NCBI GenBank assembly: GCA_000002445.1
Contig: CM000208.1
Location: 64,001 to 128,000, forward strand
Direction of reading: 5' to 3'
DNA: 64,000 nt
DNA from: Trypanosoma brucei
Lineage: Eukaryota
This document shows, piece by piece, positions 1,501 to 53,729 of this stretch. Below the pieces are notes generated by a model. It saw only the letters and a list, made by a program, of their open reading frames with translations, was not told where the DNA came from and searched no databases. Each line of letters starts with the position of its first letter. Positions within the stretch are counted from its first letter, which is position 1. Position numbers and translations under genes: made by a program.

Positions 1501-3785
1501 GTGAGGATTTGGTCTCACGGAAGAAATGGGAGGTTGACGACACCCTAACAACGATGTCGCTAACATCTGCTTCTCCTGGGTGAAGGGGTCCGGCGGGCTT
1601 CCACCTTGGGTTTTGGACGTCGCCACCGTACTGCACTTCGCTGCGAGAAATTTAACTAACATTAGGCTTATACCCCACCAGAGGCCCACAAGAGGTAATT
1701 CGTCACATGTCGCAAAGCTAATACACCTACCATCATAATCTGAGGCCGTAACCGTTGTATTTCCGTTCCGGCACTGCCAAAACAGGTTGCAATATCTTGG
1801 GTTCTTACATAAGAAGTCAACCGGTGATGACATTAGTTCGTTAGGTTGGTGAGCGATGCCGTGAGCCACTATGCATTTACATTAGCACAACTTCCGTTTA
1901 ATTGGTGGTGCCATTTTCGCATATCGAAACTCGAGCGCTGATACTTCCCGCGTGGCATTGCGTGGTTGGCGGCAGTAAGTTCTTGTTTTTCTTTTGCATG
2001 TTTACCTGGGCCCGAGCGATCTCTTTTTCTGTTAGATGTTTCGAAACCTTGGTTCATTTTACTTGTGCAAACGTAAATAGGTAGCATATTCGTTCCTTTC
2101 GTCTTTTAGAAATAGTTACTTTAGGGACACTCGAGTCGCTTTGCTGTGATTGCCAGCTGCGGCTGATTTTTTAAAATTATTCTTCCAACAGTGTTTGTAA
2201 TAGCATTGCTATTGTTTAGCTTTGGCGAGGGATATATTAAATATTTTTTGTGGGACATTATTTTTGTTGTGTGCTGCTGGTGGCGCATACTGAAGAGCCG
2301 TGGGCAAATCAAGTGCTTCTCGAGACATCCATATCCCACTGCTTTTGTGACTGCTTTTCTTCTTTATCTTTTTTGGATGTCTATGTTTTTTTACTTTAGT
2401 CTACAGGTGTATTTTTAAGTGATGGTGTAGATACTACCTATTTCGTACTGTGAGTCTCTGCTACTTTGTGCCGGGAATAGTTGTACAGTTTCTCACTTCC
2501 TTTTTACTTTTTTTTTGCAGCGGTTTTGAATAATTGTTTTGACACTGGTTGCTATGACATATTGTTCACGATGCATCCTTAAAAGTTTTGCGAGGTTAAG
2601 AAAATAAATTTATTGGCCGGATGTTTATATGTTTTCGGCAATATAATTTGTACTATTATTTTTGGTGCCTTTCTTCCCTTGTTTTGTTAACACTTTTACA
2701 TATATATATTTTTCATACTTAGATTGCGGTACGAGGTGCTCTTCGTACCATTACTTTTTTTCGCCCTTGTTTCCGGACCGAAAGGCACCTCTGCTAGTAG
2801 AATGATCGAACTTTTTATGTTATGCTTGTTATCTAAGTTACCTGCTTCAGGTGGGTTACTGTCCCTCTCGTGCCATTGTTGGATGATTGCAGATTGTTTT
2901 GAAGTATTTTTTTTGTTTATCGTTACTCACTTTTTTGTTGGATGTTTTGAAACTAGTTGTTATCCCGTTACGTTGTACACACTTTCCCTCCTCCCTGGTC
3001 GTGTACTGTCACTTTCTCTCTAAACATGGTTTTTGTGTATATGGCACTGGCTCCTTTGGACTGGGTCTTTTCATTACCCCTTATAAAAGAAAAATATACT
3101 TTATATATCTAATGTTTTTGTTTTGTGTTGCTCATTTTTTTTTTCTGGTGAACGTTTCACCGAATGTTGTTTTTGTACAACCGGCTACTGTGCATTGTTT
3201 GCGCCGTTAGTCGTTTTTAAGCTGTGAAGGGGAAGATGCTCACGTAATAGCAAAAATGAACTCGATGTTTTCCTCCCATATTTGAGCTCCGTACTTCACG
3301 AGCAGGGCACCAGATTGCGTGTGTGTACACTTTCTGCCATGTATTGCGCACACATTTGGTATGCGAACTTCAAGCTGTTGGGAGTGACTGCATTTGGCTT
3401 CTTTCCCCCTTTGTACTGTGTTATAAAAAAAAAAAATAAAATATCGTTTGCTACAACGGTGCCCCAACAATGTGGTTTGAGGTATGGGAATGGCATTTTA
3501 GGACCCTGCCTGTATTATTGTGTTTTCTTAAAACACATTTTCGTACGCGTTGGTGTTTGGTAGTTGCACATGTACCGCTTACTTCTTTTAAGTTTAATTC
3601 TCATTCCATGTTGTTCATACATTTGTCCCGGTGCAAGCGAGTGACAACAACAGTTGAGTACTTAAGTACCCCATTTCCGTCATGTATGGAAACCAAGGTC
3701 TTGTGCTATGTTCTATTTAGTAACAAGCCATCATGTTTTACAACGCGATTATATATATTACTATATTTTCTCTTTTAGTCACCGA

Positions 3786-4310
3786 ATGAGCACTAGTGAA
3801 CGGCGTCGCTATGGGTTTCAGCGTACCTCCAAAGAGATAAGAAATGAAAGGAAGCTTAACAAGATGCAAAAATGGAGTGAAAAGCTAGACAGCTGTGATG
3901 TCGTTAAATTGCGCACGGAGCTACGTTCCATGGAGAAAGCCGACTTCCTGCTCCCTCGTCAGAAAGAACGAAAGACACTGATAGAAAGAATGATACGAGA
4001 TGCTGAGCTAAGGAAGTGTGTTGAGGGTACCGCTCCCATTTCATGTGAACAGCGACCCAATGAAGATACCCAAGACAATTCGAGCTGCTCCAGTAGATGT
4101 GACGATATTATCCTTAGTCCCCGTCTGGGTGTAGGGGATGGTGTTGTGGTTACGACGCCAGATCACTTCATTCCGAGATCATTGAGAAAAAGGTGTGGTG
4201 GGAACAACAGTCAGGAGGGTCTAAAGAAACGGGTGAAGAGGGCAGAAGAGCACTTGATTGCTAACAATTCGTTGGAGGAAGATATTGATGATTTTTTTGA
4301 TTCTCTCTAG
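3786..4310 (+). CDS. Basic K/R/E-rich hypothetical protein (174 aa). It may instead be the N-terminal part of the downstream nucleotidyltransferase gene if a frameshift is present
   Basis: ATG at 3786 (the track ORF 3708 starts earlier). Charged, low-complexity translation with no recognisable domain. Its 3' end overlaps the next ORF by 53 nt in a different frame. Confidence 0.35.
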   Translation: MSTSERRRYGFQRTSKEIRNERKLNKMQKWSEKLDSCDVVKLRTELRSMEKADFLLPRQKERKTLIERMIRDAELRKCVEGTAPISCEQRPNEDTQDNSSCSSRCDDIILSPRLGVGDGVVVTTPDHFIPRSLRKRCGGNNSQEGLKKRVKRAEEHLIANNSLEEDIDDFFDSL

Positions 4311-13731: not shown

Positions 13732-14832
13732 ATGTCTTTGCTGCTGTCGGGGGTAGTGGATGACGGCAAGTCGAAACCAGAAGTGGAACACACTCACTCT
13801 GAACGTGAGAAACGTGTTTCAAACGCCGTCGAGTTTCTCCTCGATTCACGTGTGAGGCGGACGCCCACGTCGAGCAAGGTGCACTTTTTGAAGTCGAAAG
13901 GCCTTTCTGCGGAAGAAATATGTGAGGCGTTCACCAAAGTTGGACAACCGAAGACACTAAACGAAATCAAAAGAATTTTGAGCGAGCGGCCATATGTGCC
14001 AACAGGACCGAATAGCCAGCACATGACTCAGCCTTTGAGGGATGAGAGCGCCGATTCGGTTCCCACGCCTCATCCAAACCAATCCCGGCGTCACACTAGT
14101 TTACTTTACGCGCCACAAGCTCCACCGCTCCCCGAAGCGGCTGCTGCCACTCGCGGTGTGGACTGGAGGGATTTGGTAATCGGCGCCGGTGCTGCCGTGA
14201 TTGGCGGTTTTGCTGCTTTTAAAGCATTTCAATTGTATTCGCCTTATGAAATCCGTCTAAAAGACGAAGGAAGCAAGCCACGATCGCGACGCAGTCGGAG
14301 AGGGGGACGTCACGCGTCATCTGACAGTGAGGCTGAGCGGTCACTCGTGCATCGTGAAGTTCCTGCTCTTCCTGTACCCGCAATTCCTGTTGCATCTGAA
14401 AGCCACGTGGATGCAAAGCAAGCTGAAATTGAGAGGTTAAAGACTGAGTTGAAGGAGACTCAGGAAGCTCTTGAAGCAGAGAAAAAGGGCAAGGCTGAAC
14501 TCTCCATCACCCTCGGGAAGTTGCGGGGTCAGGTCACAGCATATTCAAGAACAAACGAAAAGCAGGAGTCACAAATCAAGAGTCTTCAAGAGGAGGTAAA
14601 CAGGTTGAAAAGTGAAATTGAGAGGAAAGAAGATTCTGCTAAAGTCAACGCCAATAGTAATGTGGAGGAAACCTTGGACTCTAAGGAAGAAGGTTTACCA
14701 TCCAGCGACACCGAGTCAAGTAACCCTAATGGTGCCTCATCTGAGGTTGCCCGGGACACCCAACAGCAGGATGGCCCTGCCCCATTAAGCACGGAAACGG
14801 ACGGAACAGTTGTTGGCGGCGAGGCAGCTTGA
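13732..14832 (+). CDS. PEX14: Peroxin 14 (glycosomal matrix-protein import docking factor)
   Basis: The conserved PEX14 N-terminal domain 'AVEFLLDSRVRRTPTSSKVHFLKSKGLSAEEICEAF' matches the PEX5-binding motif, followed by a hydrophobic segment 'VIGAGAAVIGGFAAFKAF' and a coiled coil. The 366-aa length matches the described T. brucei PEX14. Confidence 0.9.
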   Translation: MSLLLSGVVDDGKSKPEVEHTHSEREKRVSNAVEFLLDSRVRRTPTSSKVHFLKSKGLSAEEICEAFTKVGQPKTLNEIKRILSERPYVPTGPNSQHMTQPLRDESADSVPTPHPNQSRRHTSLLYAPQAPPLPEAAAATRGVDWRDLVIGAGAAVIGGFAAFKAFQLYSPYEIRLKDEGSKPRSRRSRRGGRHASSDSEAERSLVHREVPALPVPAIPVASESHVDAKQAEIERLKTELKETQEALEAEKKGKAELSITLGKLRGQVTAYSRTNEKQESQIKSLQEEVNRLKSEIERKEDSAKVNANSNVEETLDSKEEGLPSSDTESSNPNGASSEVARDTQQQDGPAPLSTETDGTVVGGEAA

Positions 14833-15082: not shown

Positions 15083-17254
15083 ATGTCAGAGCTGACGGCC
15101 GGTGGCAAAAGCAGAGGTGCTGAAAATCTAAGTGGTGTGACCTGTGGAAACGTAAACGATTTCGTGGCGAGTACAGATTCTGATACCGATACGTTGAATG
15201 CAACGGCTAGACCGGTTACACCTCAGCAATCACCACCGCCTCAGAGTAGTCGCGCCGGGCCCCGGCCGAATGAAGTGGTAGGCGACAATTGGGCGACAAA
15301 CCGTTCGGGAGGACCGCCTGGTTCTAATGTGGCTAACTCCGGCGCTTCCGGGGTGGTATCTGATCTGCAGTTCAACTCTCAGGATCGTGCAGCGGAGGGT
15401 GCAGTGCCGAACTTGAGTGGTGGGTTTTTTTCTCTGCCATTAAATAGCCAACTGCCGCCGCATCTAGCCGCGCCAAAGGACTCAAACAATGGGCTGAATT
15501 TGACGGATTTACCGACGCACACTAACAGTATAAACTGCCGGGAGGAGGTGGCGGTTCCTGCCAGGCGGACCAAACCGAAGAGTGAGAATTGTCTGGCTAA
15601 GTTATACTACAGTGGAATGGCGCGGCGAAAAAGAGTAGAAGAGCGACTAGAGATTTTACGAGCGCGCGATAAGGAGCTAAGGAACTGTACTTTTAAACCG
15701 GTTATCACGGATCTCGCCAAGACAATGGAACGGCCTGGAGCATTTCCTTACTGCCGCAGTGAGGAAGCTCAGCTACGTCAAAGGGCCCTTCTCGAGACGT
15801 GGGAGTCCAAGATTGAGAAAGAATGTCGCCCCACCCCTAAGATTTCCAAGGGGTCGGAACAGATTGTCCAGCGTGTCAGGAGCAGCAGCGCTTGCGTGAT
15901 ACCTGTGGCGGATCGCCTGTACATGGAGTCGGCTCGCCGTCAGTGCCGTAAGCAGGAGGAAGAGGAAAAGGGATTTCAGCAAACTATTCCACTTAGACGA
16001 AGTGCCAGTGATGTGAATGCACTCATCCATAGACTTTATGAGTTAGAGGAGAAGCGGGTAGCGACTATTGAGCGGAAGCGAGGCGAGTTATGGTTAGATA
16101 CAAAGCCAAAACGTCGGTGTGAAAATAGCGAGCAGCTCGTGGAGCGCCTTTATCGACCCACACCAAGGAGGCGACGCCCTTGTAAGAGTGAGCCGATTTT
16201 GTTTTCACCCCAAGTAAATGAAACAACGAAGGAGCTAAGCCTTCGGGCAAATAGACGGAGGTTGGAGCAGTGGCACCAGCTGTGGTCCAAGGTGTGGAAG
16301 GGGTATGGCGAAAAACAAGAACGTCAAATTATTTGCTGTGAACACCTCATGATTCTCAAGAAGATAGACGATGTGGCGCGGTCTTCTGGACTCACGGGAA
16401 ACTGTACCCTGAATGATTTTTGCACGGCAATGGAGGACTACGAGAGGACACACGGTGTGCAACATTGGCGCTTAACACCTCTCCCGCTAAAACCCCATGT
16501 GAATGAAGATCTGACGTTTTCCCCGGTGATTCTCCCCAGTCACAGGGAGCGGAAAGGCTCCCCTCCAGCACACCAGCGTCTATTCGAAGCGGCAAAAGCG
16601 AAACAACTGCAGCAGAGGGAGGAAGAGAGGAAGAGACGTGAAGAGGAGCTTCGACAAGAGGAGAAAAGCAGGGCGGTGTCACGTCGTGCCTCCAGAAGGA
16701 GCTCAAAGCAACTAGACATAAAAGATCCCGCGGAGAAGGGGGCATCCGCGTGGCCTTGTTCACCAACTGAATCTGTAAGTAGTACCGACCATTCCCGTGG
16801 CTACAAGTCCGTCGAACTTTCTTCCTTATCACCTTCCAGTTCACCTGAGAGGATGCCAGTGGGGTTTTCTCCACCTCCGGTTTGGCTGACACCGGGGCTT
16901 ATAGAGGTTGCGGAGGATCTGAAGCAGCTGATGGATGAGCCAAGAGGAGGTTGGAGTTACGCGCAGCTCAATCATTCGCGAACGAAGGTGGATGCACCAC
17001 CTGACGCCACATTGCGGCCTTCTCCGTCGGTGGGACCGAAGAGGAGTGGTTCAAACCATAGACCGTTGCGTGCACCGCAAAAGAAAAAAAAGAGGAGGCC
17101 GGTCAGTGAGTTGCTTTCTGATGAACTTCTGCTTGAGTGCGCAGCGAGCAGGTGCTCCCCATTTTCGTGGAATGTTTCTGCTAGAAACAGAGAACACCGT
17201 GACAGCAACCGACGTCTCCGCAATATGGGAAAGCTGCTTTATCACAAAATGTGA
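15083..17254 (+). CDS. Large low-complexity hypothetical protein (723 aa; S/P/R/E-rich)
   Basis: Uninterrupted 2.17-kb ORF with ATG verified at 15083. Coding-like composition but no recognisable domain. Antisense ORFs within it are short. Confidence 0.55.
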   Translation: MSELTAGGKSRGAENLSGVTCGNVNDFVASTDSDTDTLNATARPVTPQQSPPPQSSRAGPRPNEVVGDNWATNRSGGPPGSNVANSGASGVVSDLQFNSQDRAAEGAVPNLSGGFFSLPLNSQLPPHLAAPKDSNNGLNLTDLPTHTNSINCREEVAVPARRTKPKSENCLAKLYYSGMARRKRVEERLEILRARDKELRNCTFKPVITDLAKTMERPGAFPYCRSEEAQLRQRALLETWESKIEKECRPTPKISKGSEQIVQRVRSSSACVIPVADRLYMESARRQCRKQEEEEKGFQQTIPLRRSASDVNALIHRLYELEEKRVATIERKRGELWLDTKPKRRCENSEQLVERLYRPTPRRRRPCKSEPILFSPQVNETTKELSLRANRRRLEQWHQLWSKVWKGYGEKQERQIICCEHLMILKKIDDVARSSGLTGNCTLNDFCTAMEDYERTHGVQHWRLTPLPLKPHVNEDLTFSPVILPSHRERKGSPPAHQRLFEAAKAKQLQQREEERKRREEELRQEEKSRAVSRRASRRSSKQLDIKDPAEKGASAWPCSPTESVSSTDHSRGYKSVELSSLSPSSSPERMPVGFSPPPVWLTPGLIEVAEDLKQLMDEPRGGWSYAQLNHSRTKVDAPPDATLRPSPSVGPKRSGSNHRPLRAPQKKKKRRPVSELLSDELLLECAASRCSPFSWNVSARNREHRDSNRRLRNMGKLLYHKM

Positions 17255-19617: not shown

Positions 19618-20002
19618 TTAGTGACGAAAAGGTTGTCTTAGTAGTAGCGATCGTTTCCTTTTCTTTGTAGCATAATTTCCTCATGTATTTCTTTAGCTTA
19701 TTTAGTATGGGTTGCGTTTTCAAGGGGTTGTCCTGGGTAGCGGAAGTGTTTGTGGAATTGGAAAAGTTACTATTCCTGTTCCTATTTCTTATTTTTCTAT
19801 GGCTAATCATACTGAGGGAGTTTTTTTTTGCCATTTGCGGATTATTGCCTAACCGCTTGGTTTTATAGACTTTTTGATTGCTTTCCCTTCATCATCTTTT
19901 ATGCTTTTTCTGTTGATTCTTCCTCCTATCCCATTTATGAAAGAAGAAAGTTTCATCTTTTTTTGTTTGCTTGTGCTTTGTAATACTCGCCTGCGCCGAC
20001 CA

Positions 20003-20698
20003 ATGTCTGAGTCTTCGTACGGTCTTACAACATTCAGTCCTTCCGGAAGACTTGTGCAGATTGAGTATGCAACGACGGCCGCCTCCAAAGGGACAACAGC
20101 CTTAGGTGTCAAGGCAACTGATGGTGTTGTCATTGCAGCAGAAAAGAAAACAACATCACCCCTCGCTGACTCCTTAACACTTCATAAAGTGTTTGCTTTG
20201 GATGATCATGTTGGCTGTACGTATAGTGGGATTGGTCCTGATTGCCGCGTGCTTGTTGATGCTGCCCGACGCGCATGCCAGCGCTACCGCCTGACATATC
20301 ATGAGCCAATGCCTATTAGTCAACTGGTTCGTCAAATCAGTTTCTTATTTCAAGAATTCACGCAATCCGGCGGTGTCCGTCCGTTTGGGTGTTCTCTTCT
20401 CGTTGCCGGGGCGGATTCTCGTGGAAATCACCTTTATCAACTGGACCCCAGTGGAACCTTCTGGACGTGGAAGGCGACATCTATCGGCAAAGGCAGCCCC
20501 GATGCGAGAACATTCCTCGAGAAACGGTACACCAATGAAATGGAAATTGAAGACGCCGTACACACTGCGCTTTTGACACTGAAGGAGGGGTTTGATGGGA
20601 GAATGACAGCTGAAAACACGCAAGTGGGTCGGGTGGTTGAAGGTCGCTTTGAACTGCTTACGGTAGAGCAGTTGAAGGATTACCTGGACCAAATCTAA
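20003..20698 (+). CDS. PSA2: 20S proteasome alpha-2 subunit
   Basis: 'SYGLTTFSPSGRLVQIEYATTAASKGTTALGVKATDGVVIAAEKK' is closest to PSMA2. ATG at 20003; the track ORF is extended upstream through a CT-rich tract. Confidence 0.9.
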   Translation: MSESSYGLTTFSPSGRLVQIEYATTAASKGTTALGVKATDGVVIAAEKKTTSPLADSLTLHKVFALDDHVGCTYSGIGPDCRVLVDAARRACQRYRLTYHEPMPISQLVRQISFLFQEFTQSGGVRPFGCSLLVAGADSRGNHLYQLDPSGTFWTWKATSIGKGSPDARTFLEKRYTNEMEIEDAVHTALLTLKEGFDGRMTAENTQVGRVVEGRFELLTVEQLKDYLDQI

Positions 20699-21149: not shown

Positions 21150-21914
21150 ATGGAGCACGTAGTAGCCAGGGTCGCAGGTGTTCAAAAGCCAGTGGATATG
21201 CCGTTACGGCTCCTGAAGAAACAACAGTGGGTTAGATGTGCTTTGGACTGCAGTCACAAGAGAGTGCTGAGGAAAGAAGCATTTATTGAACTGTGCACCT
21301 CCAACCCGTACACACCGTTGTGTGAGCGAATGTCTAAAAGCGAAGGCATAAAATTCCTTCAGGCGCTTCATAACGCAAGGCAAGTAATAGTAGTGCAAGA
21401 TTACGTGTACATCAATCCAGCTGATGTTGTTGACGCTGTTCATGTGCGATTAGAACTTCCTAATGTTGCGCGGAGGGCACCTGTAACCTCACGAAATTGC
21501 TCTTCTGGACAACCCAAGGACTCTGAAGTAACTTTGAGAAGTGACATGGAGCGCCGCCGCTTCTTCTGGGCCATTGTTTCCCTCCTCAGTAGTGCCCAAA
21601 TGTCAATTTTAGCTTACTTGACGTTTAGTGTTTATGGTTGGAGTGTCATGGAGCCTATTTGCTATTTTGTAACAACCTCAACGTCACTTTGTGCTTACGC
21701 CTATGGTCTTTGCTACAAGAGGAACTGCTCATATGAGGCTATTGACTCCCAGTTGGCGTCTTCAGACACTTTGGTGGAAGGAAAGTCCCCTTCCACCGTG
21801 TGTACACAACCATTTTTCATGGAAGCAGTGGAACTTTTGCGGACCGTGCAAGCGGAAAGCGACAACAGTGGATTGGCTGAAGCTTCTTCTTCCGATACCA
21901 AAGACAAAGCTTAA
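21150..21914 (+). CDS. MCUb: Mitochondrial calcium uniporter (MCU) family paralog with variant pore motif WSVMEP
   Basis: TM1-pore-TM2 core 'QMSILAYLTFSVYGWSVMEPICYFVTTSTSLCAYAYG' aligns with human MCU '[37 protein letters not shown]'. ATG at 21150 (track start is TTG 21114). The symbol is a guess from recalled trypanosome MCU paralogs. Confidence 0.7.
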   Translation: MEHVVARVAGVQKPVDMPLRLLKKQQWVRCALDCSHKRVLRKEAFIELCTSNPYTPLCERMSKSEGIKFLQALHNARQVIVVQDYVYINPADVVDAVHVRLELPNVARRAPVTSRNCSSGQPKDSEVTLRSDMERRRFFWAIVSLLSSAQMSILAYLTFSVYGWSVMEPICYFVTTSTSLCAYAYGLCYKRNCSYEAIDSQLASSDTLVEGKSPSTVCTQPFFMEAVELLRTVQAESDNSGLAEASSSDTKDKA

Positions 21915-22581
21915 AATGCAAACCAATGAAGGGGAGAATATAAAGATTCCGGAGTGGTTAGCGGAAGTAGCAGTAGTGCAAGAAAAGCGATAATATTGGA
22001 ATGTGTAATACGTATTTGGATAAAGCTCAAGAGACCTTGCATCATCTACTATTCGAATGATAGGGTTCCCGTACTTTTTGTTGGCAGCTCAGCAATGGCG
22101 ACGATCTACGTTCAAAACGCTTCACCGTATGACAGTTGCTTTATGGCAGAAAGTTGCTGTTTACTCAATGAAATCGTCCGCAAGGTGATGACATTGTTGT
22201 GATGGACGCGCCAGTAAGAGTAGGAAAACAAAAGAGAAAATGCGTTTTTGTAAAAATGGCGTACGCAACCGGCGAGATAAGGGTGTAATCACTTTAAATT
22301 TGCTTCCTTCTATCTACAGTAACGTTGTGCCCGTAATGCGGGACCAGTCATCTGCCTCTCCTCAGCGTTACAGTTAAGCATTTTCGCGGGTTAGGACGGT
22401 CATTTTTTGTTTTTTTTCACTGTTTCCGTGGATCCTTCATTGTGCCGCATTGTTAGTGCGCGTACACACTCGCCCCCCCCTCCGACACACATGCCTGTGC
22501 ATGTGTTCCAGTTCCCAAGGATCATTATCATTGTTTTTATTTGTTTTGTTTGCACTTAAGGTATCATTTTGGGTATATAGG

Positions 22582-24258
22582 ATGTGGACTGTGCAGGAGG
22601 ACGAGTACAAGAACACTGAACTCAGTTTTTCAGGTTTGGAGTTAAGTCCGCTCAGTGGAACTGAGGACGCGGCGTTCAAACCTATTGGAGTGTACACGAA
22701 AAGTTCACAGGTGTTTGTTAATGCCTCCACGACACCATTGACGGGCACCCCACCAAATGACCGTTGCCCAACAGCAACTTTACTTCCACCACAACGAACT
22801 CCTGGAAGTCCTGCTGCGGCGGGACGTTTTTTCCCACGTTCCCAAGCTGCTAATGTCAGTGTCATGCGCGTCGATGCGCCGCCTTTTGAGCCGTCGTCTA
22901 ACAATTTGGCGGCTGCCATTACTTTTGTTGAGACGCCAACCGGAGGGAAACGTGGCGGGTTGCCTTTCACAGGACCTTCAGAGCGCCGCAGCCCCCATTT
23001 AATGATGCCTATTGATGACACACCCGGGAGGGATAAGGATCGTACCACATCTCAATATGTGGAATGGAGTGGCCATCATGTTAATTCATACCACTCCCAC
23101 AACGCCATGCGCCCCTTTACCACTGGTGGTAGTGGCAACAGTACTGTAAGTGTCGAGAATTTAAGGGGAAACGTTTACGAGCTGGCAAAGGATCAACATG
23201 GTTGTCGCTTCCTTCAGCGCTTGCTGTGCGATCCGGAGGCAGATTGTGAGATTCCTCGGACGATAATGAGCGAAATTGTTCCACACGTCGCTGAATTGAT
23301 GACAGATCAATATGCCAACTTCTTGGTTCAAAAGCTGTTTGATATTATGCCTAAAGATGTAAGGTACAGCGTCGCATGTGTTGCGGCCCCGAAAATTGCT
23401 GCCATAGCGCTTACGCCGCACGGTACCTTCAGCGTGCAAAAGATGATCGAAACTATTTCCTCACGTGAGGAGTTAGTGATCATTCGTGAAGCGCTATCCA
23501 AAGATGTTGTGCGTCTTGTGAAGGATGCGAATGGTAATCACGCTATTCAAAAGGTTCTTCAGCTGTTTGAACCGGATGATAAAGAGTTCGTTTACGCTGC
23601 CGTTGCTGTGGACTGCATTACCATTGCAAAGAATAAGCAGGGTTGCTGTGTGCTGCAACGTTGCCTCGAGTATGCTTCCCCTGCTCAGCGGTCCACCCTA
23701 GTGAGACATATTTTGGAGTGCTGTTTGCAAATTGCTGAGGATCCGTATGGAAATTATGTTCTCCAGTACGTGATTTCCGCGGGTGATAGCAAAACCATTG
23801 ACACGATTGCAATCGCATTTCTGCCTCATTTAGTCCAATTATGCATGAACAAATTTAGCTCCAACGTCATGGAGAAGGTTTTATGCCGAGTGTCACCACT
23901 CGTGCAGGAAATGTACGTGGATACTATGTGTACACCGGAGGTTGCAGCTCGATTAATTCAGGATGATTTCGGCAACTACGTACTTCAAACAGCATTGACT
24001 ATATGCACGGCAGGACAAGCGGAAGCGCTTGTTTCTGTCATTCGGCCTCTGATGCCATCAATTAGGAATACGCCTTATGCAAAGAAGCTTGAGGGAAAAA
24101 TTGAGAGCGCCATGTTGAAGAATGCGAATGGTCACGTGCCTGCAGTTGGTGTTGAAATGGGCCGACTGTTGGAAATGCAGGAAGCGGGAAGTGAACATTC
24201 GCCCTCTTGCCACAGTTCTGATATTCGTGCGCCTCAAAACCAACCGCTCTCCGGCTGA
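22582..24258 (+). CDS. Pumilio/PUF-family RNA-binding protein (8 Puf repeats)
   Basis: Tandem Puf repeats: 'DQHGCRFLQRLL', 'DQYANFLVQKLF', 'HGTFSVQKMI', 'DANGNHAIQKVLQ', 'NKQGCCVLQRCLE', 'DPYGNYVLQYVI', 'FSSNVMEKVL', 'DDFGNYVLQTAL'. ATG at 22582; the track ORF begins at TTG 22450. Confidence 0.85.
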   Translation: MWTVQEDEYKNTELSFSGLELSPLSGTEDAAFKPIGVYTKSSQVFVNASTTPLTGTPPNDRCPTATLLPPQRTPGSPAAAGRFFPRSQAANVSVMRVDAPPFEPSSNNLAAAITFVETPTGGKRGGLPFTGPSERRSPHLMMPIDDTPGRDKDRTTSQYVEWSGHHVNSYHSHNAMRPFTTGGSGNSTVSVENLRGNVYELAKDQHGCRFLQRLLCDPEADCEIPRTIMSEIVPHVAELMTDQYANFLVQKLFDIMPKDVRYSVACVAAPKIAAIALTPHGTFSVQKMIETISSREELVIIREALSKDVVRLVKDANGNHAIQKVLQLFEPDDKEFVYAAVAVDCITIAKNKQGCCVLQRCLEYASPAQRSTLVRHILECCLQIAEDPYGNYVLQYVISAGDSKTIDTIAIAFLPHLVQLCMNKFSSNVMEKVLCRVSPLVQEMYVDTMCTPEVAARLIQDDFGNYVLQTALTICTAGQAEALVSVIRPLMPSIRNTPYAKKLEGKIESAMLKNANGHVPAVGVEMGRLLEMQEAGSEHSPSCHSSDIRAPQNQPLSG

Positions 24259-26411: not shown

Positions 26412-27040
26412 TGACGGATTGTGTGGGTGCGTAGAGCCCCTCTGAGCCCCCTCTTCTTTTACTTTTGTACTGAACTATTGATTTCATTTTGCCTTCGTGG
26501 GCCCTCCCTTTTCAATCACATGTGGTGTAAAAAAAAAAATAATTACCGAAACTCAGGCACGCATGGCACTCGCTTCCCTTCCCCTTGACTTACACACTGC
26601 GCTGCGTGGCAACAAGCGACCTCGACTCTGAAGGGACGACTGGAGGAAAGTGGAAAAAAGAAAGGAGGTTTTTCTCGTTGTCTCACTCAGTTCGTTCTCC
26701 TCACTTTTTTTTTTGTTTCTGTGCTGCTGCCACAGTCACAACGGCAACCGATACAATATGCTTTTAAATTCCTCCTTTTTTGTTTATTTTGTTCTTATTG
26801 CCGTTGTATTCATCACACCTCACCGGGTGTGGTTCGTATATATATATATATATATATATGTCTACGTGTTTCTGCATTGCTCTGTATATATTTATATATA
26901 CGTATGTGCAGATGTTGCTCCTGTTCTTTACTGTGTTCTGTTTCTCCTTCACTGCGTTGGCGCTTTCCTTCAAATTTCTTTATATAATTTACTTTTTTTT
27001 TGTCGGCACATCCTCCTTTCGATCAGTTTGGGCTTATGGG

Positions 27041-27436
27041 ATGGACCCTGCCGATCCCACGGCGTCTGAATGTGACAAAATCAGTAGCATCGTGTCGAGG
27101 TTAGAAATGAATGAGAAGCGTCAACATGAACTGATGCTCCAAATCAGCGCATGCGAAGCCCGCATTAGGGCTATTGAAGCTCATATGTCTAGGAATTCCG
27201 ATGAGGTGCCGAAAAAATCATTAGATTCACAAGTTAATGATCGCATGAAAACCGATGATAGAAAGCAGGCGGTGGCTGTAACGGAGGAAAGGATATGCGA
27301 TTACTGTCTTATTTTCACGCAGTGTTGGTCATGCCCGGCTTGTGGACGTGAGTGGTACTGCAGTAGCCGATGCCAGCGCTTAAGGACTTACCTTCATGGG
27401 CCATTTTGTGGTTGTCAGAGACCTGCGGTTGCATAG
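27041..27436 (+). CDS. MYND-type zinc-finger protein with an N-terminal coiled coil
   Basis: 'CDYCLIFTQCWSCPACGREWYCSSRCQRLRTYLHGPFC' fits the C4-C2HC MYND finger. ATG at 27041; the upstream part of the track ORF runs through (TA)n/low-complexity sequence. Confidence 0.6.
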   Translation: MDPADPTASECDKISSIVSRLEMNEKRQHELMLQISACEARIRAIEAHMSRNSDEVPKKSLDSQVNDRMKTDDRKQAVAVTEERICDYCLIFTQCWSCPACGREWYCSSRCQRLRTYLHGPFCGCQRPAVA

Positions 27437-27762
27437 GCGCGTCACAAAATCCCCACGTGTTAGATATTTCTTCTTTTCGTTGCTTCCGCCTTCACATGTG
27501 GTAAACGAGGCGAACCCAAGACAAAAATGGAAGTGTGTGGCGTCTCATACGTACACGCATAATTCACCTGTATTTCACATTTAACATTTGCTTATGTAGA
27601 ATGCATAGATGGAATAGTCACTGCTATTACTATTGTTGTCAAACTTGTTTGACACGAACATCTTTCGACCCCCTCCCCAACCCGTTCCCTTCGTAGGCTG
27701 TGAAGTGTTATCTTTTTCTTCCCCAAACTTTCCCAGCAGGTGCGGAAGCAGTTTTCGAAGAA

Positions 27763-29070
27763 ATGGAAAAGGCCCGTCAATGGGCCTCTGAACTTTTCTC
27801 TGCGGATGTCGTGGAGGTGATGAGAGCTCGACAGGCGCTGGCGCGTTTGATGTCACCGAGGGATTTACTCGAACTGTGGCGAGGAGGGCAACAGGATGCA
27901 GCAGCAGCACTCCTTAATGAAGCGGAGGAGGTTGGGTGCCCTGAAGTGTACGCATCTCTGGGGGAAAGCTTCAACCAATTGCTTGGTTCCGGTTGCCAAG
28001 CGTCAATTGCGAGTGAGTTTCTTATTCTGGACGAGTCCCACATTGTTCTGCGTTTTCTTTTAGCTGGAGTAGGGCATGAAGATGTCATGAGGGCGGGTTG
28101 CTTACGTCCCGCGCTTATCGGTGCACTGGCCGTTTTGCCCGAGCGGATGGCTCCAGCTGTAGGCGAACTGTTCTGTGCATCCTTGAGGAGCGAGAAAATA
28201 TTGAGGTTGTTTGATGAAAATTCCCCCGAGTCGGAGGATAATTTGAGGGTTTGTGAGTTCCTTGCTGCTCACACTGATTTACCGTCTTTCATTGTCAACG
28301 CCACGCTCGAAGCGTTCGAGAGTGACCCCCTACTCGTTGCGAATTACCTTATAGTGAGCGGCATTGTAAGTCGTCACACGGAGTTATCGACACAGTTACT
28401 CGGTAGGATCTACCATGAGCTCACGAATGGCATAAACGGTTTTTTGTTCCCGTTTGTGTGTCGTGCGTGCGCAATAACCCTCAACAAGCACGAGGAAAAC
28501 GCCGGGAAGTATGCTGAGTTGTGGGGAACTGCCGTTGCTGCTCAGTTGGACCGCTGCGATCCGGACACTCGCGATGCAATTTACGATCTTCTCGGCGCGG
28601 CAAGCACTACACAAACGGGATGGGGAGCTGTACAATCTTTTGTTAAGGAGGAAGACCTGCTGCATGCACTCGGTGCGAAGAAACTGTGCGCTGGTGCGCT
28701 GAGCTTTATGAGTGTTGTTGTGCAGTCTCTTTTCGTACCTGATACATTTTTTACTCGACAGATTCTCACTGCGGCGTGGCAGTTACGAGTCAGCCAGGAC
28801 GATACCACTCGAGAGAGGTTGTGGGAGTTTATTGTTAAGTGTCTTTCACGTGAGTCGTTGGTGTTTATTATCTTTCCACTGTGTGCTTCTTACCTCTGCT
28901 CTTCACGTCAAGAGCATTTGGTTAACATTCGTGGTTTGCAACTCGACGCGGCCACTCGTCTTGTTGCTTCTGGGGTCCTTCCACCTGAATTGACAGAACG
29001 GCTACAAGTCTACATCTCCCGAGGGCTTTATCCTCCTGGGTCAGTGGGTGTAGAAACAATGTCACATTAA
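27763..29070 (+). CDS. Hypothetical protein (435 aa, Leu/Ala-rich, likely alpha-helical repeat)
   Basis: Long ORF with ATG at 27763 (track start is GTG 27700). No recognisable motif. Coding-like composition and co-orientation with neighbours. Confidence 0.5.
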   Translation: MEKARQWASELFSADVVEVMRARQALARLMSPRDLLELWRGGQQDAAAALLNEAEEVGCPEVYASLGESFNQLLGSGCQASIASEFLILDESHIVLRFLLAGVGHEDVMRAGCLRPALIGALAVLPERMAPAVGELFCASLRSEKILRLFDENSPESEDNLRVCEFLAAHTDLPSFIVNATLEAFESDPLLVANYLIVSGIVSRHTELSTQLLGRIYHELTNGINGFLFPFVCRACAITLNKHEENAGKYAELWGTAVAAQLDRCDPDTRDAIYDLLGAASTTQTGWGAVQSFVKEEDLLHALGAKKLCAGALSFMSVVVQSLFVPDTFFTRQILTAAWQLRVSQDDTTRERLWEFIVKCLSRESLVFIIFPLCASYLCSSRQEHLVNIRGLQLDAATRLVASGVLPPELTERLQVYISRGLYPPGSVGVETMSH

Positions 29071-29363
29071 GAGTTTTTGCAGATGTTGCTTTATGATCAG
29101 CTATCGCGCGAAACGATGTGAGGCACTGCAGTCGCGTTGCGCGTGTGCAGGCGACTCGTAAATATTATTCCACCCTTGTTGCGGTACTTGTGCATCGTGG
29201 GTCAATTTGTCTGGGGGTGTGTAAGGTTATTCTAATCATCCTTTTGTGTGGGTTGCGCTTGCTTTGTCGGTTGCTGCCGCTCTAGTTTCTCGTTTGCTCT
29301 TTCCTTTTCTTTTGTAATCTCCTTTTGCTTGCTTCTTTAACAACGAGGTTAGGTGCGGGTGCG

Positions 29364-30251
29364 ATGTCGGTACGGGAACGAGCTGTGGTACTTATTGATG
29401 GCCCAGCGTTGATTCACCGTTGGTATTACCGTTGGTTGTACACTAATAGAAATAACCCCGTTGATGTGAAGCGCTTTGCCATAACAAATGCGCGGCACAC
29501 AATTGCTATAGCGCATAGCTTTGATCCCAGTCACTTGATGCAGCACCTTCTCTCGCCGCAGGTGGAGTACACGCATACACCCAAACATAACAAGCTAATT
29601 ATATGTTTCGATCAAGGTGATGGCGGCCGTCGAGAGATTTACCCAAAGTACAAGTTAAATCGTGAGGGACGAGAAGTAGGGGAAGAGCTTGGAGTCATAC
29701 AAAAGGTCGCCACGAAGGTGTTTCTGGGTGAGCCGAAGAATACGCTTTTAATTGTACCTCACTTTGACTCGAAGCTCAAGAATGTGAATGCCGAAGCCGA
29801 CGATATGATTTCCACCTTAGCACAACATACCCAACGAATTAGAATTCCCACTGTCATAATGTCGCATGACCATGACCTGTACCAGCTTATCGATGAGGCG
29901 AGTAGGTGTTATTACTACGACATTCGTACGAAGCATCTCATATCTGAAAAGGGTGTAATTGAGCGTCTCGGCGTTCACCCAAAGCTCGTACGGGATTACA
30001 AATGCTTAGCGGGTGACCCTTCTGACAATATTCCTGGTGTGAAGGGAATTGGGAAAACCCGAGCACTGCAGCTGCTAAAAAAGTACGGTGACTTGGAGGG
30101 AGTGCTCACCAAAGGCACTAAGAAGCAAGGTGGGGTTGTTGGTGATTTACTGAGGGCTGGTGTCGAGGGTGCCGAACTTTCACGGAAACTTGTAGAGCTG
30201 CGTGACTGTCCTAGTGTACTTAGGGTGTGTGAATTCTTCCTGAAGCTATAA
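29364..30251 (+). CDS. SSE1: Bacterial DNA Pol I-type 5'-3' exonuclease / flap endonuclease (structure-specific endonuclease 1-like, kinetoplast primer removal)
   Basis: H3TH motif 'LAGDPSDNIPGVKGIGKTRALQLLKKYGDLEGVL' and N-terminal 'VLIDGPALIHRWYY', characteristic of the Pol I 5'-nuclease family (53EXO). Acidic metal-binding residues present (DQGDGG, HDHDLYQLIDE). ATG at 29364. Confidence 0.8.
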   Translation: MSVRERAVVLIDGPALIHRWYYRWLYTNRNNPVDVKRFAITNARHTIAIAHSFDPSHLMQHLLSPQVEYTHTPKHNKLIICFDQGDGGRREIYPKYKLNREGREVGEELGVIQKVATKVFLGEPKNTLLIVPHFDSKLKNVNAEADDMISTLAQHTQRIRIPTVIMSHDHDLYQLIDEASRCYYYDIRTKHLISEKGVIERLGVHPKLVRDYKCLAGDPSDNIPGVKGIGKTRALQLLKKYGDLEGVLTKGTKKQGGVVGDLLRAGVEGAELSRKLVELRDCPSVLRVCEFFLKL

Positions 30252-51803: not shown

Positions 51804-53729
51804 ATGCCCGAGGCGTATATTGAGGAAACACAAAGTAAACTGGGGGCTGTTATTAGTTCCCCAAAGTTATCTGAGAAACTCCTTTTGAAACCTCCTTTCC
51901 GTTTTTTGCATGACATTGTCACCAGTTTTATTAAAGCAACTGGGTTCCCTGATGGTTTATATCCCGAAGATATGCTTGACAGTGCAAATGTATCCGATAA
52001 AGAAAAGAAGATACAATTCCTTAGTCTCCTTATTGCGGCCGTTGAGTCGGCAACGGGTTCAAAGGTGTCAGCCAATCCTTCTAAAATTGTCGCGGGACAT
52101 GAACCTGAGCAAACAAACGAATTACTTCAGTTACTTGCTTCTTGCGCTGCACTTCCGTCGGATAAAAAGGCAGCGGCCGTAAAGGCAGCAAAAAGTGCGG
52201 GAGACGCTACGAAATCATCAAGCAGCAAAGGCGGGGACGACGACGAGAAGCGCAAGCGACGCGAAGAAGAAAAGAAGAAACGAAAGGAAGAGGAAGGTGA
52301 TGGTGAAAAGAAGAAACATAAGGAAGAAGACGGCGAGAAAAAGAAGCACAAGGAGGAAGACGGCGAAAAGAAAAAACATAGGGAAGAGGATGGAGAAAGG
52401 AAGAAGCATAAAGAAGAGGACAGTGAGAAGAAGAAACGCAAGGAAGGAGAAGGGGAAGAAAAGAAGAAACATAAGGAAGAAGATGGTGAGAAAAAGAAAC
52501 GAAAAGAGGAGGAGGGAGACGGTGAAAAGAAAAAGCATAGAGACGAAGATGGAGAAAAGAAAAAGCATCGGGAGGATGATGGAGAAAGAAAGAAGCGAAA
52601 GGAAGAGGAAGGTGATGGTGAAAAGAAGAAACACAAGGAAGAAGATGGCGAGAAGAAGAAACGAAAAGAGGAGGAGGGAGACGAGAAGAAAAAACATAGG
52701 GAAGACGAAAGTGAGAGAAAGAAACGAAAGGAGGAAGATGGAGAGAAAAAGAAACGAAAAGAGGAAGAAGGAGAGAAAAAGAAACGGAAGGAGGAGGATG
52801 GTGATGGTGAAAAGAAGAAACGTAGGGACGAGGATGATGAGGAACGCCGTAGGAGACATGAAGAGAGGAAGCGACAAGAAAAGAAAGCTGCTGAGCAGGC
52901 GCAAGGTAGTGCCGGAGCTGAGCCATCTGAAGGTAAGGGTGCGGATGGTACTACAGAAGGTGCTACTGGCCAACAGCAATTACCAACACGTCAGCTTATC
53001 CGCAAATCGTCTGCGGGGAAAGCGCCACCACGTTCGAAGGCTTCGCACGAAGTTGTTGCTGATGATGGTAGTTCTGCAAATGTTGCTGAAGTGATCCGTG
53101 AGACGAAGCGTGGTGCTGCCGGGGAGGGTTCTAAAGAAGATGGAGAGGAAAATGATTGGATGCGTGTCGCTGAGCAACAGGCCGCACGACCAACGAAAGA
53201 CAGTGACGGCACTTTACAAGATGGTGAGGCAAAGGGATATCTCGGCCAGCAGGCTTTGCGAGCGAAGCGGGAGCAAGAAGAAGAGACCGCGCGTCTGGCG
53301 CAGGATGGTGGTGCACGAGGTCCTCGAGAGGGCGGTATTATTATTCACAGCAACAGGGCTGGTAAGAGCGGTGGCACCATGGCGGAGGGCGAACTCAGCA
53401 AACTTCGGCAACAACTTCAACTGTTGACGAAAGCTTCTAATCCTCTTGGAAAACTTTTGGAGTCGATTCACGATGACATCGACACAATGGGGCGGGAATT
53501 GGAAATGTGGAGATCGGAGGCACGCAGCCAGGCGCTTGCTGCTGCTGATGCACGCCGGCAAACAACAGAAAGTCTTCAGGAGGTACACGCCCAACTGCAG
53601 GCTCTAGAAGACGCTATAAGTGATCAAATATTGAAAAACCATAACATACGGCGCAATATCATCAGTAACGACAATGCCATTGCTGGAATGGTCCGCATGT
53701 TTGTTAATCCCGATGCCCTTACCCGTTAG
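51804..53729 (+). CDS. IFT54: Intraflagellar transport protein IFT54 (TRAF3IP1/MIP-T3 homolog), with an expanded K/E/D-rich tandem-repeat linker
   Basis: N-terminus '[33 protein letters not shown]...[15 protein letters not shown]...[21 protein letters not shown]' closely matches MIP-T3 '[32 protein letters not shown]...AKISFLQKAIDVV...[21 protein letters not shown]'. C-terminal coiled coil, and a central repeat '[12 protein letters not shown]' about 15 times. ATG verified at 51804. Confidence 0.85.
   Translation: [641 protein letters not shown]
52236..52884 (+). repeat. In-frame tandem repeat (about 36-nt unit, about 15 copies) encoding (K/R)EE(D/E)GEKKK(H/R)KE inside IFT54
   Basis: Near-identical 'aaggaagaagacggcgagaaaaagaagcacaagg' units are visible directly. 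They generate the spurious long S/F/L-rich ORFs on the minus strand (52127-52979). Confidence 0.85.

Follow-up and report, generated by a model that had tools for sequence, protein, structure and literature searches.

A serine at the outer acidic ring of the selectivity filter in TbMCUb, a mitochondrial calcium uniporter subunit of Trypanosoma brucei

The window (the whole stretch of T. brucei DNA that was analysed, 64,000 nucleotides from contig CM000208.1) encodes TbMCUb, a known subunit of the mitochondrial Ca2+ uniporter, which carries Ser165 where the selectivity filter of this family has the Asp of its outer ring (WSVMEP, canonically WDIMEP). TbMCUb is best explained as a pore-lining subunit of a four-member hetero-oligomeric uniporter that aids Ca2+ uptake, with Ser165 most likely a tolerated residue at a weakly constrained site (probability approximately 0.8). 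As TbMCUb is a published and characterised uniporter subunit, finding the gene itself adds nothing new. The natural Asp-to-Ser change is seemingly undiscussed and offers a ready-made natural test of the outer acidic ring when a uniporter is hetero-oligomeric. In African trypanosomes, it could affect how MICU proteins dock and how potent ruthenium inhibitors are. It is a modest specialist point, neither a surprise nor a discovery.

Gene identity and locus

The TbMCUb open reading frame starts with the ATG at 21150 of the + strand, its stop codon ends at 21914 and its product is 254 aa in length. The opposite strand of 21150-21914 has stop codons throughout. The peptide quoted in the sequence-only reading of this DNA, QMSILAYLTFSVYGWSVMEPICYFVTTSTSLCAYAYG, is found exactly in the 254-aa translation of 21150..21914. 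The gene and the neighbours named here are as follows.

13732-14832, + strand: Pex14 N-terminal-domain protein
19874-20698, + strand: proteasome alpha subunit, upstream of MCUb
21150..21914, + strand: complete CDS of TbMCUb (Tb927.10.300), 254 codons plus stop (ORF translation)
within 22450-24258, + strand: PUF3, PUF-repeat ORF downstream of MCUb
29325-30251, + strand: 5'-3' exonuclease/FEN-like protein
51804-53729, + strand: MIP-T3/IFT54-like protein

The predicted protein is identical to XP_822290.1/EAN77462.1 of T. brucei brucei TREU927 (100% identity over 100% of the length). Its length and its computed mass (28.47 kDa) agree with those of published TbMCUb, given as Tb427.10.300, 254 aa and 28.4 kDa in the passages retrieved from Huang and Docampo (2018, mBio 9:e01700-18, PMC6143741). 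A review table also gives Tb927.10.300 as MCUb (PMC6027440). According to the same PMC6143741 passages, trypanosomatid MCUb proteins have two hallmarks: Tyr in place of the human Arg late in TM1, and Asp or Gly in place of the Ru360-related Ser. TbMCUb has both, with Tyr at the first position and Gly at the second. The window gene is therefore TbMCUb (Tb927.10.300), already known and experimentally characterised, and the MCUb label that had been attached to it tentatively from the sequence alone is correct (100% identity to XP_822290.1, with a gene ID that maps to MCUb).

The gene order in the window is proteasome alpha subunit (19874-20698), MCUb and PUF-repeat protein (22450-24258), and the same three-gene order is kept at the orthologous locus of T. 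vivax. A study of PUF3 assigns that gene to Tb927.10.310, adjoining Tb927.10.300. Every ORF of at least 300 aa within window positions 3708-62802 lies on the + strand, as expected of a single trypanosome polycistronic unit. Three of the ORFs in the window (15083-17254, 26780-27436 and 27700-29070) have no Pfam match.

Family membership and architecture

TbMCUb matches the Pfam MCU family (PF04678) over residues 65-204 (hmmscan; E-value: 7.7e-25, 88.4 bits against a cut-off of 30.8). Among all PDB chains, 12 calcium-uniporter sequences are matched, with E-values as low as 4.5e-9 (phmmer). The sequence-only reading had proposed an MCU-family paralog, and both searches bear this out, the Pfam score standing well over its cut-off, so that the likeness is not due to chance. 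The parts of the protein are listed below.

21342..21761, + strand: Pfam MCU domain PF04678 region, residues 65-204 (hmmscan, profile positions 3-157 of 177)
21522..21635, + strand: long helix, residues 125-162 (AlphaFold2, pLDDT about 77-82)
+ strand: TM1, the C-terminal part of helix 125-162, residues about 138-162, FFWAIVSLLSSAQMSILAYLTFSVY (gap-free PDB alignment)
21639..21725, + strand: TM2, pore-lining helix, residues 164-192 (AlphaFold2 helix; alignment to TM2 of MCU chains)
21726..21911, + strand: matrix-side C-terminal tail, residues 193-254 (AlphaFold2, pLDDT 37-67)

The AlphaFold2 model (mean pLDDT 72) and the gap-free alignment to solved MCUs show the arrangement typical of the family: two transmembrane helices (residues 125-162 and 164-192), a short connecting loop and a filter turn that opens TM2. 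When the AlphaFold2 monomer was compared with PDB structures by Foldseek, no match reached significance (best E-value: 0.34, to winged-helix-like pieces). This result speaks neither for nor against the MCU assignment, which is based on sequence profiles.

The alignment to PDB chains places Tyr156, Val161 and Gly163 of TbMCUb at the positions of human Arg252, Glu257 and Ser259, respectively. The motif ILAYLTF of TbMCUb lies opposite ILARLTW of the human protein, and its Tyr is invariant in 17 kinetoplastid MCUb sequences.

The N-terminal part of the protein is a separate point. Residues 20-100 (window 21207-21449) are modelled with very high AlphaFold2 confidence (pLDDT 92-97), and the N-terminal ~80 residues comprise a long helix and, after it, a small alpha/beta unit (E39-41, H42-51, H63-75, E80-82, E85-87 and H90-100). 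This ~80-residue region is kept across kinetoplastid MCUb proteins, and the Pfam MCU profile spans its second half only.

About 65 residues follow TM2 in TbMCUb, as the sequence-only reading had stated, and human MCU has a tail of the same length. Counted from the MEP of the filter, the rest of the protein has 85 residues in TbMCUb and 86 in its human counterpart. The alignment pairs query residues 127-199 with residues 224-296 of the 351-aa human chain, and 55 residues remain afterwards in both. The length of the tail therefore gives no information on a missing coiled coil, and the further claim of that reading, that so short a tail implies the loss of the second coiled coil, does not stand. 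The tail itself is modelled as a short helix (residues 195-204), a disordered segment (205-220) and a low-confidence helix (221-239, pLDDT 61-67), and the Pfam MCU alignment goes no further than residue 204 (position 157 of the 177 in the profile). A coiled-coil motif is reported to be absent from TbMCUb in the retrieved passages of PMC6143741. Length apart, the evidence is mixed: TbMCUb may have no recognisable CC2, though not for the reason of tail length.

Serine at the outer-ring position

The selectivity filter of TbMCUb is located at the start of TM2.

21639..21656, + strand: selectivity-filter motif W164-S165-V166-M167-E168-P169, canonical WDIMEP (codons TGG AGT GTC ATG GAG CCT)
21642..21644, + strand: Ser165 codon AGT, outer (Asp) ring position (alignment to solved MCU chains)
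21651..21653, + strand: Glu168 codon GAG, inner high-affinity (Glu) ring position (alignment to solved MCU chains)

In the phmmer alignment, 'ygwSvmep' of TbMCUb stands opposite 'yswDimep' of the human and other MCU PDB chains, and the query stretch that aligns to these chains free of gaps is 'ilayltfsvygwSvmepicyfvt'. The inner-ring Glu168 and the flanking W164 and P169 of the family motif W-D-x-x-E-P are present; the outer-ring Asp is not, and Ser165 stands in its place. W164, V166, M167, E168 and P169 are invariant in the 17 aligned kinetoplastid MCUb sequences.

Because the PDB alignment is gap-free, Ser165 can be assigned to the position of the DIME Asp. A misalignment concealing an Asp was considered and rejected on the same ground: with W164, M167, E168 and P169 invariant, no shift of the alignment yields an Asp at the ring position. 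The Asp-to-Ser change with retention of the Glu, first noticed from the sequence alone, is thereby established by the PDB alignment, the codons and the 17-sequence alignment. The change is not mentioned in the PMC6143741 passages found by term search, and the string WSVMEP has no match in the literature collection searched.

Distribution of serine and aspartate

The motif WSVMEP is common to T. b. brucei TREU927, T. b. gambiense DAL972, T. equiperdum and T. vivax. In T. vivax, the ring Ser codon is AGC (contig SOPI01000141.1; gene at 3001-3798 of the retrieved locus). The motif WDVMEP is found in T. congolense, T. cruzi, T. c. marinkellei, T. conorhini, T. rangeli, T. theileri, T. melophagium and T. 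grayi, and likewise in Phytomonas, Strigomonas and three further kinetoplastid sequences, such that Asp is present in every sequence of the 17-sequence kinetoplastid MCUb alignment that does not have Ser. The T. congolense gene model TCIL3000_10_160 (213 aa) begins at the equivalent of TbMCUb residue 68 and so is without the N-terminal region conserved elsewhere; the annotation is probably truncated, and the difference not real.

Searching 1.84 billion representative proteins with a profile returned 1138 relatives, and the ring residue was counted in the best 150 of these. It is Asp in 145, Ser in two and Pro, Glu and Asn in one each; the two Ser carriers among these best 150 are T. brucei and T. 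vivax only. Three other non-Asp ring motifs (WPVIEP, WEIMEP and WNVMEP) occur among family representatives. A published survey of 2495 MCU sequences lists 14 variants at the D locus (E, N, S, H, G or A) versus one at the E locus, and published surveys indicate that the outer-ring Asp is not strictly needed for membership in the MCU family.

The AGY codons for Ser and the GAY codons for Asp differ at two nucleotide positions. In the established species tree, T. congolense is closer to T. brucei than T. vivax is. Given this tree, the Asp of T. congolense implies either one gain of Ser plus a reversal or two independent gains. The remainder of the TM1-filter-TM2 region is conserved in the Ser-bearing species. 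The MCUb gene is constrained there and not in decay. Judged from the sequences compared, Ser is a genuine, lineage-restricted detail of the T. brucei group and T. vivax, and its presence there alongside Asp in T. congolense points to weak constraint at the outer-ring site.

It is also conceivable, but unlikely, that salivarian (African) trypanosomes have acquired Ser as an adaptation that retunes the mouth of the pore. With Asn in MCUc and MCUd, TbMCU would then be the sole Asp donor of a nearly uncharged mouth, and the threshold of Ca2+ capture, MICU1/2 docking or ruthenium-amine sensitivity (inhibitor binding) would be altered. The presence of Ser in two salivarian lineages, by codons two nucleotide steps from those for Asp, and the lack of any further Ser among the best 150 of the 1138 relatives are consistent with such a change, as is the nature of the site: the outer Asp ring is the contact site of MICU1 and Ru360 in human MCU and has been proposed to be so in T. 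cruzi also. However, the Asp of T. congolense calls for a reversal or two gains, and drift at a weakly constrained site fits this pattern equally well. In addition, the MICU1 and MICU2 proteins of T. cruzi do not behave as classical gatekeepers.

Published function and mutagenesis of the two rings

The function of TbMCUb has been studied in T. brucei, and the following is taken from the retrieved passages of PMC6143741. In both life stages, TbMCUb and MitoTracker co-localise. TbMCU, TbMCUc and TbMCUd co-precipitate with it in a complex of about 380 kDa, and its subunit contacts are mediated by its transmembrane helices. In procyclic forms, RNAi of TbMCUb significantly reduces mitochondrial Ca2+ uptake; in bloodstream forms, RNAi lowers the protein by only about 18% and the effect on uptake is non-significant. 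Overexpression of TbMCUb is reported only as being without a dominant-negative effect, unlike that of mammalian MCUb. Overexpression of MCUc or MCUd raises Ca2+ uptake; no such rise is reported in these passages for TbMCUb. As to stoichiometry, the published trypanosome model is a hexamer, and the solved MCUs treated in the same papers, as far as retrieved, are homo-tetramers.

Mutations have been made at both ring positions in several uniporters. When introduced in situ into TcMCUb of T. cruzi, D161N reduces Ca2+ uptake and E164Q abolishes it; TcMCU follows the same pattern, its Asp being dispensable and its Glu essential (PMC6727756). The Glu is likewise essential in human MCU, as judged from E264 mutants. 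The human D261A mutant still transports Ca2+ and still rejects Na+, and it has lost MICU1 binding and Ru360 sensitivity; one study measured transport that was 3.8-fold slower, and a bioRxiv study put it at about 4% of wild type. In the reconstituted channel of the beetle Tribolium castaneum, the D-to-A mutant retains nanomolar Ca2+ block. Function is lost with most replacements of human D261 according to Phillips et al., and D261Q is dead. Because of these last results and the rate of about 4% for D261A, a neutral residue at the outer ring is not always harmless.

The sequence-only reading had predicted that TbMCUb, having lost the outer-ring Asp, does not conduct or acts as a regulatory, dominant-negative subunit, a role akin to that of mammalian MCUb. 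Several observations agree with this prediction: Asp is kept in 145/150 of the best relatives (of 1138), TbMCUb has Tyr and Val where human MCU has R252 and E257 (the positions that mark human MCUb), most changes of human D261 abolish transport, and overexpressed TbMCUb is not reported, in the PMC6143741 passages, to raise uptake as MCUc and MCUd do. The experimental results are nevertheless against it. Procyclic RNAi lowers uptake and overexpression is not dominant-negative, and by these findings alone, as given in the passages of PMC6143741, the prediction is contradicted and largely refuted already. Results from T. cruzi speak against it as well: there, MCUb is needed for uptake, its D161N mutation reduces uptake without abolishing it, and a TcMCU double mutant (R-to-W and D-to-V) still rescues uptake (PMC6727756). 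MCUc and MCUd, also without the Asp, are needed for uptake and raise it when overexpressed, according to the PMC6143741 passages. An inhibitory TbMCUb is thus highly improbable. The other option named in the sequence-only reading, a pore with altered properties, may still apply.

That Ser stems from faulty sequencing or assembly, or is a polymorphism of the reference strain, was considered and rejected: no support for either was found, identical WSVMEP motifs occur in the independently sequenced TREU927, T. b. gambiense DAL972 and T. equiperdum, T. vivax has Ser by the synonymous codon AGC and AGT is two positions away from an Asp codon.

Proposed role of TbMCUb and Ser165

The preferred reading, that TbMCUb is a pore-lining subunit that aids Ca2+ uptake and tolerates Ser165, can be set out as follows. 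TbMCUb, MCU, MCUc and MCUd jointly form the mitochondrial Ca2+ uniporter of T. brucei. TbMCUb would line the pore and supply Glu168 to the inner, high-affinity Glu ring, which would do the selecting. At the wider outer ring, Ser165 would offer a neutral hydroxyl and not a carboxylate; the mouth of the pore would be less negative, and the subunit would not be switched off. If MCUc and MCUd carry Asn, as stated in the retrieved passages of PMC6143741, TbMCU would be the sole Asp donor in T. brucei.

Ser165 is most likely tolerated because other MCUs can conduct without the outer Asp and because Asn already stands at this position in MCUc and MCUd. Given that MICU1 and Ru360 contact the outer Asp ring in mammals, and are proposed to do so in T. 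cruzi, plausible effects would be on Ca2+ capture, MICU docking and inhibitor potency and not on conduction. Ser165 may therefore influence the capture of Ca2+ at low concentration, the sensitivity to ruthenium amines and the docking of MICU proteins.

Comparison with known systems

TbMCUb as published (PMC6143741, passages retrieved) and the protein encoded in the window are the same: sequence, length, mass and the place on chromosome 10 beside PUF3 all agree. The T. cruzi orthologue TcMCUb (Chiurillo et al. 2017, 2019; PMC6727756) is 52% identical to TbMCUb over 87% of the query. The two proteins share the same architecture, with Tyr and Val at the MCUb-type positions, and TcMCUb is likewise needed for Ca2+ uptake and is not dominant-negative. 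The two differ at the outer ring, where TcMCUb retains Asp (WDVMEP) and TbMCUb is naturally neutral.

Human MCU (Q8NE86; PDB 6o58, 6wdo and 6k7x) belongs to the same Pfam family as TbMCUb and aligns with it without gaps over TM1, filter and TM2, the W, M, E and P of the filter being conserved. It has WDIMEP, Arg252, Glu257 and Ser259 where TbMCUb has WSVMEP, Tyr156, Val161 and Gly163, and it has about 97 extra N-terminal residues. TbMCUb has no predicted coiled coil according to the passages of PMC6143741. Human MCU needs EMRE, whereas T. cruzi has no EMRE orthologue according to the cited papers.

Mammalian MCUb (CCDC109B) and TbMCUb both have hydrophobic residues in place of the Arg and Glu late in TM1, the pair being W and V in human MCUb and Y and V in TbMCUb. 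It is by these two TM1 changes, and not by a change of the DIME Asp, that mammalian MCUb is set apart. The DIME Asp itself is retained in mammalian MCUb. Mammalian MCUb is dominant-negative, whereas TbMCUb is not, according to the retrieved passages of PMC6143741. The same passages assert that MCUb orthologues are widely distributed, but the shared name is no proof of orthology between TbMCUb and mammalian MCUb.

A parallel at the outer ring itself is found in trypanosomatid MCUc and MCUd, which, as described in the PMC6143741 passages, are part of the same complex as TbMCUb, are without the outer-ring Asp and are needed for Ca2+ uptake. These passages describe both as confined to trypanosomatids and as carrying W-N-x-x-E-P in almost all trypanosomatids examined. 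They differ from TbMCUb in having Asn and not Ser at the ring position, and an extra Asp before the Trp (DWN) where TbMCUb has Gly (YGWS; PMC6727756).
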